A stretch of DNA of 35,457 bases from Candidatus Treponema faecavium (lineage in GTDB: Bacteria > Spirochaetota > Spirochaetia > Treponematales > Treponemataceae). The position numbers and the translations under genes are program-made. Location: positions 1 through 35,457 of the forward strand of contig DXHG01000055.1 of NCBI GenBank assembly GCA_019113455.1, in the 5' to 3' direction. The notes below the pieces were generated by a model. The model searched no databases. It was not told the origin of the DNA and saw nothing but the letters and a program-made list of their open reading frames with translations. Of the stretch, positions 11,562 to 32,325 are shown piece after piece (the first letter of the stretch is position 1; the number at the start of each line of letters is the position of its first letter).

Positions 11562-13931
11562 TTACAATACAAACTCGCCGGTGGAAAAATCATACACGCC
11601 GTTAATGCTCACGCCCGCAGCAAGGCTCACCGATGCGCCGAACAGCGCGCCGCGCGGAATCTTGATATAGTTCTCCCCGTCTTCGCCTTTCGTTCCGGTA
11701 ACCGTTATCACAACCTTCGGATTAAACGGATACGCGTACAGCACCTTATCAAGTATATCGGCGCCCACTATGTTAACAATATCGGCTTTATCTTTTCCGG
11801 CGCCTATCGTAAACGCTTCGTCAAGTTTGTATGTTTTCTGCTCGTCAGCTGTAAGCGATTCCCACTCACGCACTGCGCCGTCAGCCGTTTTAACCCGTTC
11901 CGGCGTGTTAGTCAGCGTTGCGCGCAAGCCCGCGCCGAATTTATTGTCATACGAAACAGAAACGGTAAGTTTGTCAAGCGAGCGTATCACCTGATCAAGC
12001 GTTTCATCAAGGGAATCGGGGCTCGTCCTTCCCAGCAGGTCTCCGTCTGACGATTCACCTTCTCCGGTAAGGGATGAAAGCGACAGCTCCACCTCTGCCG
12101 TGCCGCGGGGCAGTTTCAGTTTGAGCGGAGCGATGACGAGCAGAGACGCTTCGATAGACAGCTTGCCTCCCTCAAGTTTATCTATCTCGTCTTTCGTAAT
12201 CGTTACATTGCCGCCGTCTTTTCCCGTGATGGAAATATCATACTTCACCGTGAGATCGGAGGGATACTCGTTAAGCTTCTCGGTAATCTTTTCATGATGC
12301 AAGTCAGCACTCACGTTGCCGAGCGCATATGAAAACTTCTCCGTAATTGTGCCGCCGGGCTCGGGCAGGTCTGGCCCGCTGCTCAAAAGCCGTATATCAG
12401 TAACAAGCAGATTTTCAGATCCTGCCGCCCCGGCGCCTGAAAGCGTTATCTCTCCCGCGGCGGCAATGTCTGTAAGCACGTCTTCACGCGGCTTTATGAT
12501 AAACGGATACGCCTCAATGCCGCTGAACTCAATCTGCTCGGTAAGGGCTTGACTCTCAGGAGCAATCTCTTTAATCATGTCGTTAATCGTGCTTTCAAGC
12601 TCAGAAAGATCGATGGGGGCTGTCTCGCCTTTAAGCGGATTCTCCGCTCCCTCTGTAAGATTGCTGAAAGCATCGTCCGCGAGCGTGATTGATTCCCACT
12701 CCATCACGGACGTCAAGCTGCCGCTCAGCGTATAGGCGGCTCCCGGTGCTACGGTTGTAAAGCGGTAGAGCGTCTGGTCGCCCCGTTGTTCAGACGGCAG
12801 CGCAATCTCTACGGTAAACGGCAGTATCTTTTTTCCACCCTTGTCAATAAGACTGGAGACGTCAAGTTGTGCCGGGGCAGTAAGATTTATGTCCGTGTTC
12901 CCCGCGCCTCCTTTTATAACATCGCTTGTATCGAGCAATCCGACGGTGGCCGTACTGACCGTGATTGTGATGTCGTTGCCTTCAGGCAGCGTGCTTGTAA
13001 AACTGCCTTCCGCGCCGATTTTGGAAAACTGCACCTGCTCAACCAGCCCGTCAAGATCGATTAAGTCAACCTCTTCAGTCTGGCTGAACTGCTTCGTTAT
13101 CTCGTCCGGCAGCTTGACAAGCACAGAATTGATGGTGGTTATCTCGCCCGTAACGGAGAGTGTCACGCCGCCATCAGGAACTGAGGAACCGGCTTTAATG
13201 GTGATGCTGCCGCCAAGCTTATAATCGCTGTTTTCGCCGCTTACAAGCGGCGTTTTTTCCAGAGAAAAATACCACCCGCTGCTGCTGTCTCCTTCAATAG
13301 GAGACGGGGCACCATCGCCAATAGACAGCGTAACGCCCTGCAAATCGGCGCCGTCAAAACCCGGAGTCTTAATCATAAGCTTGCCGGTAACGACAGCTTC
13401 TGCAATCGTCACGCCATCGGAAGACAGATCAGCCCCCTCAAACGCAACATTTCCTATTGGCACATCAGGGACATCAATTGGCACAGTCTGCCCGGCCAAA
13501 TTTTCACCAATAGTAAATTCGTATTCTATTTTAATGTCCGGTATCGCGATTGTCTGTTCGGGAATCTCGACATTTGTAGATTCCACATTGGCAGCGTCAA
13601 GCGCCCCGCTTACGTCAATATCAAATGTGCCCAGATTATAGTACAGCGCAAACTGCTGCATGGTGCTGTTTCCGCCGGGGTTATAGTCGTACACGGTCAT
13701 GCCGTCAGTATCGCCGCCGAGCATATCCTGTATGTCTGCGGCAGAAGCATAGTCGTCAAGTTTTTCTTCCGCCTTGCCAAGACCCACGTTAAACGTGGGG
13801 TCGGCAATAACGTTCACTTTTTTTGGCAGCATAACGCCATTGCAGCCCAGCAGAACCGCCGCGCACAGCACGCGTATACCTGCGGCGCACGCAAACCGCG
13901 CCGTTTTTTTTAACAGAGTACAGATACCCAT
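11562..13931 (-). CDS. Large acidic lipoprotein of unknown function
   Basis: 789 aa. AAGGAGG (rc of 13936-13942) precedes ATG 13931. Signal peptide ends in lipobox LLGC (Cys30). The mature part is rich in D/E/T/S/G and I recognise no catalytic motif. Tightly coupled to the downstream barrel-like gene. Confidence 0.8.
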   Translation of the reverse strand: MGICTLLKKTARFACAAGIRVLCAAVLLGCNGVMLPKKVNVIADPTFNVGLGKAEEKLDDYASAADIQDMLGGDTDGMTVYDYNPGGNSTMQQFALYYNLGTFDIDVSGALDAANVESTNVEIPEQTIAIPDIKIEYEFTIGENLAGQTVPIDVPDVPIGNVAFEGADLSSDGVTIAEAVVTGKLMIKTPGFDGADLQGVTLSIGDGAPSPIEGDSSSGWYFSLEKTPLVSGENSDYKLGGSITIKAGSSVPDGGVTLSVTGEITTINSVLVKLPDEITKQFSQTEEVDLIDLDGLVEQVQFSKIGAEGSFTSTLPEGNDITITVSTATVGLLDTSDVIKGGAGNTDINLTAPAQLDVSSLIDKGGKKILPFTVEIALPSEQRGDQTLYRFTTVAPGAAYTLSGSLTSVMEWESITLADDAFSNLTEGAENPLKGETAPIDLSELESTINDMIKEIAPESQALTEQIEFSGIEAYPFIIKPREDVLTDIAAAGEITLSGAGAAGSENLLVTDIRLLSSGPDLPEPGGTITEKFSYALGNVSADLHHEKITEKLNEYPSDLTVKYDISITGKDGGNVTITKDEIDKLEGGKLSIEASLLVIAPLKLKLPRGTAEVELSLSSLTGEGESSDGDLLGRTSPDSLDETLDQVIRSLDKLTVSVSYDNKFGAGLRATLTNTPERVKTADGAVREWESLTADEQKTYKLDEAFTIGAGKDKADIVNIVGADILDKVLYAYPFNPKVVITVTGTKGEDGENYIKIPRGALFGASVSLAAGVSINGVYDFSTGEFVL

Positions 13932-14054: not shown

Positions 14055-14258
14055 CGGTTTTTGCCCCTGCGGGGCGAGCTTGTTTCCTTTGCAGTTCCAC
14101 TGCGGGGCGGTTCTGCGCTTGCACGCGCGGCTGTTTTTCTTCGCAGGTCTCACCCGCAGGGTGGGTTCTGCGCTTGCATGCGGGCTTGTTTCCTTTGCGG
14201 GTCTCACCCGCGGGGTGGTTCTGCGCTTGCACGCGGGATTTTTTCTTTCTTATTCTAG
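14055..14258. repeat. Tandem repeat, ~54-bp unit (53-55), ~3.7 copies, ending in the TTCTTTCTTATTCT box
   Basis: TTCTGCGCTTGCA(C/T)GCG recurs at 14111, 14166 and 14219. The intervening segments are mutually similar: CTGTTTTTCTTCGCAGGTCTCACCCGCAGGGTG versus CTTGTTTCCTTTGCGGGTCTCACCCGCGGGGTG. A degenerate unit starts near 14055. Confidence 0.85.
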
Positions 14259-14415
14259 TCGCAAACCTTCGGTTTGCTTACGCAGTTTTAGGGCTGTGCC
14301 CTAAAACTGCCAGTTCAGCTATCTGTCGTTAGCCTGATAGCTGAACCACAGCACAGGGGCTTGTCGCTGCGCTCCAAGCTACCAAGTTTAAGGCTGCGCC
14401 CTAAACTTGCATAGA
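14259..14415. repeat. Cluster of REP-like stem-loops (AGTTT(T/A)AGGG..CCCTAAAACT type)
   Basis: Hairpins GCAAACC-TTCG-GTTTGC (~14260-14277), CAGTTTTAGGGC/GCCCTAAAACTG (~14283-14309), CAGCTATC..GATAGCTG (~14315-14345) and AAGTTTAAGG..CCCTAAACTT (~14384-14409). Confidence 0.75.
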
Positions 14416-14464: not shown

Positions 14465-14725
14465 GATTTGCCGCTGGCAAAATATTTGCCGTTTAAAAAT
14501 AAAAAATTTGCCGATTACGAATGAAAAATTTGCCGTCGGACAGCGGCGCACTTGCCGATTGCAAATTTTTTGTTTGCCGTCGGCAAATGAAATGTTTGCC
14601 GACGGCGAGTGTCTCACTGGCCGACGGCAAATTTCACTCCCGATAAACGGCAAATTTAAAATTAGCAATCGGCAAATTTTTTATTTGACATCGGGAAATT
14701 CTTTTAGTTTCCCGGCAGGAAACTT
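14465..14725. repeat. ~260-bp element densely packed with TTTGCCG / CGGCAAA motifs, copy 1
   Basis: TTTGCCG at 14467, 14485, 14507, 14529, (C)TTGCCG at 14551. Palindrome TTTGCCGTCGGCAAA at 14573-14587. TTTGCCGACGGCGA at 14595. GGCCGACGGCAAA ending at 14631. CGGCAAA at 14648 and 14670. CGGGAAA at 14692. TTTCCCGGCAGGAAA at 14708-14722. Forward motifs fill the left half and reverse motifs the right half. Confidence 0.85.
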
Positions 14726-14729
14726 TTCG

Positions 14730-15300
14730 CGGCGCTCTAAACTTGCGACTTTGTCCATGCAAGTTTAGGGCGCAATGCGCCCTAAACTTGGCAGCTTGCC
14801 GCTACGCGGCAAGCCTCAGTGCTGGAAAAGAGGGAGAGGGCTGGAGAGGGAGGAATACCCGCTTCTGAAGCAGATGTTTTTCTTCCTCTTCAGAAAAATA
14901 AATTATAGAGAATAAGAAAGAAACAAGCCGTGCATGCAACCGCAGAACCTCTCCACAGCGAACTGCAAAGAAAACAAGTCCGCGTGCGAAACGCAGCGAC
15001 TGGCACCCAGTGCTGGAAGAGAGGGTGTACGCTTACTGCTCGGACTAACGCTCTCGCAGTAAGCTGGCAGTTTTGAGGCAGAGCCTCAAAACTGCGTAAG
15101 CAGACCGTAGGTCTGCGACCAGGTGCCTCTCCCGCCCCAGAAAAACAAATTATAGAGAATAAAAAAGAAAAAACGCCCGCGTGCACACGCAAAAGCAAAA
15201 CCGCAGGGAACTGCAAAGAAAGCAGCTGCGCGTGCAAAACGCAGAAAAAACACCCCGCAGCGGGCTGCGAAACTGCCGCCGCACGTGCAGCGTGCAGAGT
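14730..15300. repeat. Two tandem forward copies of the mosaic repeat
   Basis: Hairpins 14735-14815. Copy 1: CAGTGCTGGAAAAGAGGGAG at 14816, AAATTATAGAGAATAAGAAAGAAA at 14898, CCGCGTGCGAAACGCAG near 14980. Copy 2: CAGTGCTGGAAGAGAGGG at 15008, hairpins CAGTTTTGAGGC/GCCTCAAAACTG and GCAGACC/GGTCTGC, AAATTATAGAGAATAAAAAAGAAA at 15147, CCGCGTGCACACGC and CTGCGCGTGCAAAACGCAG to about 15300. Confidence 0.8.
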
Positions 15301-15369: not shown

Positions 15370-16704
15370 ATGAAAGTCATGGTAGTCGGTTCTGGCGGCC
15401 GGGAACACGCCATCAGCTGGGCGCTGGCAAAAAGCCCGCGCGTGGATACCGTTGTCTGCGTTCCCGGGAACGGCGGAACGGCATATGAAACAAAATGTGT
15501 CAATATTGATCCTGCTGCGTACAGCTGCCCGCCGCAGCTGGGGGAACTTGAGCGGTACGTCTATATCGCCACGCAGGAAGGCTGCGCGTTTGCGGTTATC
15601 GGACCTGAGGCTCCGCTTGCGGCGGGGCTTGCCGACATGCTTGAGGATGCAGGGATTCCGGCTGTCGGGCCGCGAAAACAGGCGGCGCAGCTTGAGGCAA
15701 GCAAGGATGCTGCCAAGCAGTTTATGAAAAAGTACGGCATTGCCTGCGCAAAAAGCGAATCGTTCCGTGATCCTGAGCAGGCGCACAAGTATATCGATGA
15801 GCAGGGAGCGCCTATTGTAATAAAAGCCGACGGTCTCGCCGCCGGAAAAGGCGTCGTTGTTGCCAAAACTGCCGAAGAGGCGCACGCAGCCATACGCGAT
15901 TTTATGGAAAAAGACACGCTCGGCGGCGCGGGAGCCACGGTTATTATAGAAGAATATTTGACGGGAACGGAAATCTCGATGTTCGCCGCCGTGTGCGCTG
16001 CGCCGAAACTCACCGATGCTGCCAGATCCTGCATCACGCCGCTTATGTATGCGCGCGATCACAAGCGCCTGCATGACGGCGCGCAGGGGCCCAATACGGG
16101 CGGCATGGGAGCCGTTGCTCCGCTTACGGATATAACAGCGCAGCAGTACGATGATTTTATACAGTATATTTATATGCCGACGTTTGCCGGCATTGTCGCA
16201 GAGGGCTGGGATTATAGGGGATTTTTATTTTTCGGGCTCATGCTTACCAAAGACGGGCCAAAGCTCCTTGAATACAATGTCCGCCTCGGAGACCCTGAAA
16301 CACAGGCGCTGCTGCCGCTTCTGGACAGCGACTTTGCGGAGCTGTGCGAGGGACTTGCAGGCGGCAAGCTCGGCGACTGCGGCGTCTCATGGAAGCAGGG
16401 GTTTGTATGTGCTCCGGTTGCCGTCTCGGGCGGGTACCCGGGCAGTTATGAGAAAGGCAAACGCATCAGCATCGATAATTCACGCTATGACGCGGAACAT
16501 GTCAAAATCTTTATCGCAGGCGCGAAAGCGGCAGACGGCGGCCGGCTTGAGACAAGCGGCGGGCGCGTGCTTTCGGCTGCGGCATACGGAACGACCGCTC
16601 AAGAGGCGCGCTCCCGCGCGTATGAGGCGCTTGAAGCCGTTTCATTCGACGGCATGTTTTACCGCCGCGACATCGGACTCCCCGGCGCGGCTGATTCGAC
16701 ATAG
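15370..16704 (+). CDS. purD: Phosphoribosylamine-glycine ligase
   Basis: The track ORF starts at 15181 inside the repeat. ATG 15370 gives the canonical N-terminus MKVMVVGSGGREHAISWAL. ATP-grasp motifs IVIKADGLAAGKGVVVA, EEYLTGTEIS, LEYNVRLGDPETQ, GGRVLS. 444 aa. Confidence 0.95.
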   Translation: MKVMVVGSGGREHAISWALAKSPRVDTVVCVPGNGGTAYETKCVNIDPAAYSCPPQLGELERYVYIATQEGCAFAVIGPEAPLAAGLADMLEDAGIPAVGPRKQAAQLEASKDAAKQFMKKYGIACAKSESFRDPEQAHKYIDEQGAPIVIKADGLAAGKGVVVAKTAEEAHAAIRDFMEKDTLGGAGATVIIEEYLTGTEISMFAAVCAAPKLTDAARSCITPLMYARDHKRLHDGAQGPNTGGMGAVAPLTDITAQQYDDFIQYIYMPTFAGIVAEGWDYRGFLFFGLMLTKDGPKLLEYNVRLGDPETQALLPLLDSDFAELCEGLAGGKLGDCGVSWKQGFVCAPVAVSGGYPGSYEKGKRISIDNSRYDAEHVKIFIAGAKAADGGRLETSGGRVLSAAAYGTTAQEARSRAYEALEAVSFDGMFYRRDIGLPGAADST

Positions 16705-32059: not shown

Positions 32060-32325
32060 ATCCCGGCATCAGATTTCCCATTTAAAAAATAAAAATTTGG
32101 CGATGGCAAAATTTTATTTTGCCATTTATCCTGAGTGAATTTTGCCGATGGCCAGCGAGACACTTGCCGTCGGCAAACGTTTCATTTGCCGACGGCAAAC
32201 AAAAAATTTGCAATCGGCAAGTGCGCCGCTGGCCGACGGCAAATTTTTTACCGGATAAACGGCAAATGTAAATTTTGCCATCGGGAATTTTTTTGCCGTC
32301 GGCAAATCTCTTGCCGCAGTACGCA
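32060..32325. repeat. TTTGCCG/CGGCAAA-dense element, copy 2, inverted relative to 14465-14725
   Basis: By hand alignment, the reverse complement of 14529-14700 matches about 32085-32250 block for block: GAGACAC-TTGCCGTCGGCAAAC-TTTCA-TTTGCCGACGGCAAACAAAAAATTTGCAATCGGCAAGTGCGCCGCTG-CCGACGGCAAATTT. The central ~110 bp is nearly identical; identity is lower in the arms. Confidence 0.85.

Follow-up and report, generated by a model that had tools for sequence, protein, structure and literature searches.

The TTTGCCG-rich stretch at positions 14465-14725 of the analysed window (35,457 nucleotides, contig DXHG01000055.1 of Candidatus Treponema faecavium) is, with near certainty, one member of a dispersed repeat family and not a one-off operator. 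A BLAST search with the element detected 141 loci in the source MAG (G000; 2.2 Mb, 245 contigs, 83% complete, 53% G+C), and an nhmmer search with a profile built from 66 copies detected 151 loci, distributed over 128 contigs. All copies together make up 28 kb, corresponding to 1.3% of the assembly and 7.6% of its non-coding DNA, and this palindrome-array family is the largest single repeat in a MAG where about 13.5% of the non-coding DNA is repeated five or more times. The initial annotation had suggested an iteron or operator-type array, and this reading fails as a locus-specific one because the same ~250-bp element recurs at 151 loci, including a second copy in the window. The family is probably a lineage-specific, non-coding and non-autonomous foldback or mosaic repeat, the palindromes of which are putative protein recognition sites.

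The copy at 14465-14725 (copy 1; profile match C174:14463-14719) contains 10 exact TTTGCCG/CGGCAAA heptamers, all between 14467 and 14676, which is a density more than 100 times that expected by chance. The forward heptamer TTTGCCG is found at 14467, 14485, 14507, 14529, 14573 and 14595 and the reverse heptamer CGGCAAA at 14581, 14625, 14648 and 14670, and there are further variants with one mismatch (CTTGCCG, TGGCAAA, CGGGAAA and TTTCCCG). The initial description of a motif-saturated palindromic array with forward copies to the left and reverse copies to the right was accordingly upheld, with 10 exact copies plus the one-mismatch variants. In the 35.5-kb window as a whole there were 40 heptamer matches compared with 11.9 ± 3.1 expected from dinucleotide-preserving shuffles, and half of the 40 were concentrated in two clusters. 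Inverted-repeat analysis placed the symmetry centre of copy 1 at 14580, the middle base of the perfect 15-bp palindrome TTTGCCGTCGGCAAA (14573-14587), and gave a complementarity of 76% for the arms 14526-14579 and 14581-14634 and of 79% for the arms 14479-14536 and 14647-14704. Both TTTGCCGTCGGCAAA and the second palindrome that had been quoted, TTTGCCGACGGCGA at 14595-14608, are in place. Tandem Repeats Finder reported a 22-bp period, and the copy consists of about 11 units that are quasi-palindromic about 14580, with the five best-conserved central units (14529-14631) at exact 22-bp spacing.

The closest credible coding sequences end at 13931 and start at 15370. To the left is a gene encoding a lipoprotein-like protein of 789 aa without Pfam family (11562-13931, minus strand) and to the right is purD (15370-16704, plus strand), with the GARS_N, GARS_A and GARS_C domains, and both genes point away from copy 1. 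The second copy of the element (copy 2, 32073-32310) is inverted, about 83% identical to the first, and located between a DUF308 gene (minus strand) and tRNA-Met (plus strand). Both window copies are thus found within divergent spacers.

The repetition of the motif had been recognised from the start, but the unit is not an irregularly spaced heptamer. In the consensus a 15-bp palindrome of 6-3-6 geometry (TTTGCC-N3-GGCAAA) and a 7-bp AT-rich linker after it make up the unit, which recurs with a period of 22 bp, occasionally 23 bp. A full copy of about 250-300 bp (copies range over ~200-330 bp) strings roughly 11-13 units into a concatemer and has a median of 8 full sites; 318 pairs of neighbouring sites were spaced 22 bp apart and 128 pairs 45 bp apart. 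In the central five units two of three distinctive linkers, CAGCGGCGCAC and GTGTCTC[A/G]CTGG, are kept between copies. Some of the outer units retain just the centre-facing half-site (TTTGCCA... or TTTCCCG... on the left, ...CGGCAAA or ...CGGGAAA on the right), and since these half-site-only units point inwards from both ends the element is a foldback centred on the perfect TTTGCCGTCGGCAAA. Full-length copies terminate in TTTGCCGNCGGCTGWCAGATTTCCCGTTTAAAAAATAAAAA... and its mirror image, their ends reading TTTGCCGNCGGCTGWCAGATTTCCCG...CGGGAAATCTGWCAGCCGNCGGCAAA. The element forms an imperfect inverted repeat over its entire length, but the start and end points of the profile matches are scattered. 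Copies differ in how many outer units they have and in how these are ordered, and the unit variants at positions -1 and +1 indicate that units have been swapped between positions. The whole module of about 250 bp, linkers included, is copied as a unit.

The consensus has a G+C content of 41% compared with 53% in the genome, and within the 22-bp period, which corresponds to about two helical turns, a 9-bp GC core is succeeded by an AT tract of 13 bp (G+C autocorrelation peak at lag 22). Among the mirrored consensus positions 75/93 were Watson-Crick, and 74.7% of the mirrored cells paired as compared with 22-39% in slid controls. A cruciform or structured RNA had been proposed, with folding as a check, and a strong fold was indeed predicted for the element both as DNA (-74.9 kcal/mol, z = -10.3) and as RNA (-110.5 kcal/mol, z = -8.6). 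The cruciform potential is in other words real in silico.

The dispersal of the family has left its mark on the assembly. Sixty-eight contig ends, or 14% of all contig ends, fall inside a copy, with the breaks spread over the conserved centre, and the family is therefore one of the chief causes of the fragmentation. The sequences flanking the copies are mutually unrelated, any 12-mer being common to at most 7 of the 229 flanks. This ruled out an extra terminal module as the 'true' TIR, given that no 12-mer was present in more than 7/229 flanks.

Within the source MAG, 234 perfect 15-mers were located inside arrays and 6 outside, and these 6 were truncated arrays, solo end units or one chance match in coding DNA. 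A search of the source MAG for isolated operator sites in front of a regulator gene found none, and since the perfect 15-mers are practically confined to the arrays there is no independent operator regulon. The motif frequency was 32 per kb inside the arrays and 0.85 per kb outside, which confirmed that the motif exceeds its background in this genome. Outside the arrays TTTGCCG/CGGCAAA is nonetheless common in coding DNA (rank 25 of 8178 7-mers, about 7 times the mean count), where it probably reflects codon and composition preferences (GGC-AAA, TTT-GCC). Given that the bare heptamer is common in coding DNA, only the arrayed 15-mer palindromes are diagnostic.

These data also bear on the idea that the stretch is a locus-specific iteron or operator array controlling its neighbours, or alternatively a structured RNA gene. 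Plasmid iteron arrays and partition-centromere arrays are single loci beside rep or par genes on their replicon. The element resembles iterons and sopC-type arrays in having phased sites of protein-binding type about 22 bp apart, and differs from them in its 151 chromosomal copies, in giving no plasmid or phage match and in having no adjacent rep or par gene. The high local motif density and the strong predicted fold would fit an operator array or an RNA gene, but the 151 copies have unrelated neighbours and are not accompanied by solitary operator sites, and with respect to the downstream gene the arrays show only a weak preference for one orientation (16 to 6). For an RNA gene, the variation in mirrored pairs is adverse: 509 cells were pair-breaking and 19 compensatory, no better than in slid controls, and RNA structure under selection was rejected on this absence of covariation. 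Rfam gave no match above threshold, the best being MIR6201 with 28.7 bits, where the gathering score is 69, and Gut-1 was likewise below threshold (25 bits, gathering score 50). Both the locus-specific array and the RNA gene are accordingly extremely unlikely. A conserved small ORF was also rejected, no reading frame being open across copies, and together with the positions of the nearest credible coding sequences this agreed with the non-coding status originally assigned. A single promoter-like site, and a weak one, was present in the array. Because neither covariation, an Rfam match nor a conserved frame was found, the palindrome array is here treated as an element that would act at the DNA level.

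The 68 full copies had a median pairwise identity of 86.6% and a maximum of 96.4%, and their median identity to the consensus was 91%. With no pair of copies more than 96.4% identical, the alignment gives no sign of current or very recent copying of the element. The variation was unevenly distributed over the unit: 3.6% of the cells were non-consensus in the canonical hexamers and 6.1% in the degenerate half-sites, compared with 16.8% in the central triplets and 17.6% in the linkers. The conservation of the hexamers was also seen in the unambiguously aligned central five units, and a weaker effect was present among rare copy-private variants (1.8% in the hexamers versus 2.9%, odds ratio 0.60), although the cells compared here are not mutually independent. 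Concerted evolution among the approximately 20 identical half-sites of each array, or subfamily structure, could partly contribute to the conservation. The pattern is that expected if a protein or the copying machinery recognises hexamer pairs, and the substitution data support such recognition. The possibility raised in the initial annotation, that the stretch is a decayed MITE without conservation of the heptamers, was thus right in that the stretch belongs to a repeat family and wrong in that the heptamers are kept between copies.

The distribution of the element outside the source genome was narrow. The source MAG itself is that of a spirochaete, with three FlaA genes compared with none in 14 control genomes. 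The element was absent from 30 close relatives including the sole same-genus genome, in which the coding DNA is 65-68% identical and synteny is lost. The pattern GGCAAA-N6-8-TTTGCCNNNGGCAAA occurred 247 times in the source MAG, whereas of 400 other genomes of the family (24 genera) 399 had no match and one had a single match. When all GTDB species representatives were scanned, one true extra copy was obtained, on a 2-kb contig. A metagenome scan with GGCCAGCGGNGCACTTGCC returned 60 matches, of which 60/60 were due to chance and none matched the profile, and an exact-protein look-up of purD for other strains gave no record. The plasmid and phage collections and the literature contained no match to the element and Rfam none above threshold, in agreement with the earlier remark that no described element carries the motif. 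As far as these searches extend, the array family appears to be restricted to one lineage.

The contig with the extra copy (L009 = CASFEZ010000068.1, 2067 bp) comes from an 'uncultured Eubacteriales' bin. Its array (1847-2067) is 96% identical to copy C167 and adjoins an hsdS-like fragment and a gene of the Phage_integrase family (ORF 588-1664). The remaining sequence of the contig had no match to the source MAG, and since the other contigs of that bin are without the element this contig was judged to be probably mis-binned. Four matches in rumen Bacteroidales (L010-L013) were rejected as members of the family. They represent a coding triple repeat in which TTTGCCGTCGGCAA occurs three times near the 5' end of a conserved coding region; this coding repeat is unrelated to the spirochaete element, and the 15-mer alone is thus not diagnostic.

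The genomic position of the arrays was examined for the 66 internal copies, using our own crude gene calls with a codon-usage filter, which reproduced the obvious genes of the window. Divergent spacers contained 35/66 copies (12.9 expected by base pairs), tandem spacers 28/66 (42.8 expected) and convergent spacers 3/66 (10.3 expected), and this distribution departs from expectation (p = 3e-11). The copies are overwhelmingly located in spacers that lie upstream of genes, most of all in divergent ones, and about a quarter of the divergent spacers of at least 100 bp contain a copy. Most simply, the arrays would be retained where the DNA is not transcribed, either because they are harmful if transcribed or because they are working there.

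Other repeat modules are found next to the arrays. To the left of copy 1 there are 3.2 tandem units of a 54-bp 'mosaic' repeat (14074-14245, plus strand), each with a terminator-like hairpin and a T-run directed towards the array, and on the other side terminator-like mosaic-repeat hairpins (14980-15273, minus strand) are also directed towards it. This mosaic repeat is a different dispersed repeat from the palindrome array. The mosaic units flanking copy 1 contain 12 terminator-like hairpins versus 3.1 expected, all of them inward. Genome-wide, the hairpins of this type located less than 400 bp from arrays were inward in 73 cases and outward in 43, a modest bias. A REP-like perfect hairpin, CAAGTTTAGGGCGCA/TGCGCCCTAAACTTG, is a further dispersed module, located at 14760-14790 with an inverted partner at 14400-14415 on the other side of the array, and the same module also follows the array on contig C44.

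One explanation for this setting is that the host has adopted the arrays as architecture, in the form of phased binding platforms for an abundant lineage-specific DNA-binding protein or of intrinsically curved or cruciform-prone DNA that insulates or tunes neighbouring promoters or absorbs supercoils in untranscribed divergent spacers. The enrichment in divergent and depletion in convergent spacers would agree with such a role, as would the 73 to 43 excess of inward terminator-like hairpins in the flanks, the 22-bp period of about two helical turns with its alternating GC cores and AT tracts, the hexamers that are kept even among rare copy-private variants, and the absence of a transposase. 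However, the element is missing from the relatives including the same-genus genome, and therefore is not an ancient host system. The distances between array and gene start are moreover broad (median 214 bp), the array has a single weak promoter-like site, and a protein that binds it was not found. The same distribution would result from a selfish element that is purged from transcribed DNA. We therefore regard adoption by the host as unlikely, and the preferred reading as a non-autonomous foldback repeat accommodates the positional bias equally.

With regard to mobility, no target-site duplication was visible on inspection of 60 flank pairs and the termini were not sharply defined. Within the source MAG there was no empty paralogous site, that is, no place where both flanks of a copy were adjacent elsewhere, and no multi-copy protein family. 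Matches to DDE_Tnp_1, DDE_3 (IS630) and TnpB were absent from the source MAG, and the sole transposase detected belongs to an IS3-family element with an rve domain and an orfA/orfB layout (C44:106-1548, partly covered by L018). This element has the inverted ends TGAACTGCCCCCCC (TGAACTGCCCCCCCCAAAAAAAAAGTTGGACAAGAA) and an apparent 3-bp target-site duplication (TGC), and its insertion site is in the mosaic module located after a TTTGCCG array. This IS was rejected as the parent of the arrays, as its inverted ends are its own and unrelated, it has a 3-bp duplication, and it is merely inserted beside the array.

The family has several properties in common with MITEs and foldback elements (Correia, RUP and the eukaryotic Foldback). 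It is small, non-coding and multi-copy (~200-330 bp at 151 loci, where MITEs are smaller than about 600 bp), has long imperfect inverted halves with a variable number of subrepeats, and breaks short-read assemblies, and its internal subrepeats are possibly multiple transposase-binding sites. Eukaryotic Foldback elements have long inverted ends made of short tandem subrepeats. The array differs from these groups in that neither sharp termini, target-site duplications nor a related autonomous element were found and in that its subrepeats are themselves palindromic. Judged from the assembled sequence, it appears to lack the target-site duplication and the autonomous parent needed for the label MITE.

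We also considered a REP/BIME-type element, for which a RAYT (Y1 transposase) would mobilise hairpins of single-stranded DNA. The RAYT gene of such systems is present in the same genome and is usually flanked by REPs. No match to Y1_Tnp (RAYT/IS200; PF01797) was found in the 83%-complete MAG, whereas the control genomes did match. The arrays do share with REP, BIME and REPIN sequences the clustering of abundant, species-specific extragenic short palindromes in alternating orientation and at high copy number, with no target-site duplication seen. REPs are, however, palindromes of 20-40 bp with a GTAG or CGTC tag at one end, and they are mainly located downstream of genes, between unidirectional and convergent ORFs (PMC3733652). 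The palindromes here are 15 bp and carry neither tag, the arrays are located upstream of genes and in divergent spacers, which is opposite to the position of REPs, and an entire 250-bp module with its linkers is copied as a unit. Membership in the REP/RAYT group thus fails on size, tag, transposase and location, and movement by a RAYT is highly unlikely.

In architecture the closest analogue of the palindrome array is the neisserial NIME, of which it is not a member by sequence. In a NIME, dRS3 sites (ATTCCC-N8-GGGAAT) alternate with lower-GC RS spacers and give a wave in G+C content, the numbers of units are dynamic, and a site-specific protein is suspected, no transposase being known (PMC1797815). 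The likeness to the array lies in the 6-bp inverted arms and lower-GC spacers with their regular G+C wave, the dynamic numbers of units, the intergenic location, the confinement to one lineage, the lack of a known transposase, the mixing with other repeat modules and IS insertions, and the suspicion of a site-specific protein. The differences are in site geometry (6-8-6 in dRS3, 6-3-6 here) and site sequence, in the spacers (RS families of 50-150 bp as opposed to conserved linkers of 7 bp), in the whole array being a conserved foldback of about 250 bp copied as a unit, and in the host phylum. To our knowledge, dRS3 flanking RS elements of 50-150 bp is found only in Neisseria.

By this analogy the 6-3-6 palindromes could be targets of a site-specific (tyrosine) recombinase, the arrays having been both assembled and spread by recombination and not by transposition. 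Four tyrosine recombinase genes are present in the source MAG. One of them (C35:327-1160, L087; 277 aa) is Xer-like and has its stop codon about 180 bp from the end of a full array (C35:1-150); it is followed by three paralogous ORFs without a family match. The Xer-like tyrosine recombinase on the extra contig (L009:588-1664) likewise has an array about 180 bp past its stop codon. The core site of classical tyrosine recombinases has an overlap of 6-8 bp. In addition to these two adjacent genes, NIME-like recombination would be in line with the ragged ends, the variable number of units, the lack of visible target-site duplications, the exchange of units between positions (the -1/+1 variants) and an architecture analogous to dRS3 with its 6-bp inverted arms, lower-GC spacers and G+C wave (PMC1797815). 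On the other hand, the central spacer of 3 bp is too short for the classical core, no recombination products were observed, and the two recombinases share only 26% identity over 150 aa, while their adjacency to arrays can be due to chance given about 150 arrays in about 860 spacers. Spread by such a recombinase is accordingly quite unlikely.

Under the preferred reading of a non-autonomous foldback repeat, hexamer pairs such as TTTGCCGNCGGCAAA would be the sites of a dimeric sequence-specific DNA-binding protein, and sites two helical turns apart might allow it to bind cooperatively along the same side of the helix. The foremost candidate would be the transposase or recombinase that copied the element, and this protein may be absent from the 83%-complete MAG or have been left unassembled. 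Arrays would grow and shrink via slippage of units or unequal exchange, and copies might survive mainly in untranscribed spacers because a strong hairpin would be harmful elsewhere.

Repeats interspersed between genes, among them REP/BIME, NIME, Correia and MITEs, have been described chiefly in Proteobacteria and in a few Firmicutes, and their mobilising proteins and functions are often unclear. We file the present family as a lineage-specific interspersed palindrome-array repeat, kin in kind to these known repeats yet new in form. It is distinguished by its 22-bp-phased 6-3-6 palindrome, by being the dominant repeat of a gut spirochaete, by having no recognisable transposase and by a positional bias opposite to that of REPs. 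In practical terms, the family explains why the MAG broke into 245 contigs and could provide a marker for strain typing. It is conceivable, though we think it unlikely, that the arrays, far from being dead selfish DNA, together offer a single lineage-specific dimeric DNA-binding protein or recombinase some 900 or more phased 6-3-6 sites, kept in untranscribed, terminator-shielded divergent spacers and serving either an architectural or insulator role or a NIME-like one; such a system would be without precedent outside Neisseria and Proteobacteria. Were there a dedicated binding protein, the family would offer a tractable case of the genome-wide amplification of a short operator-like site.
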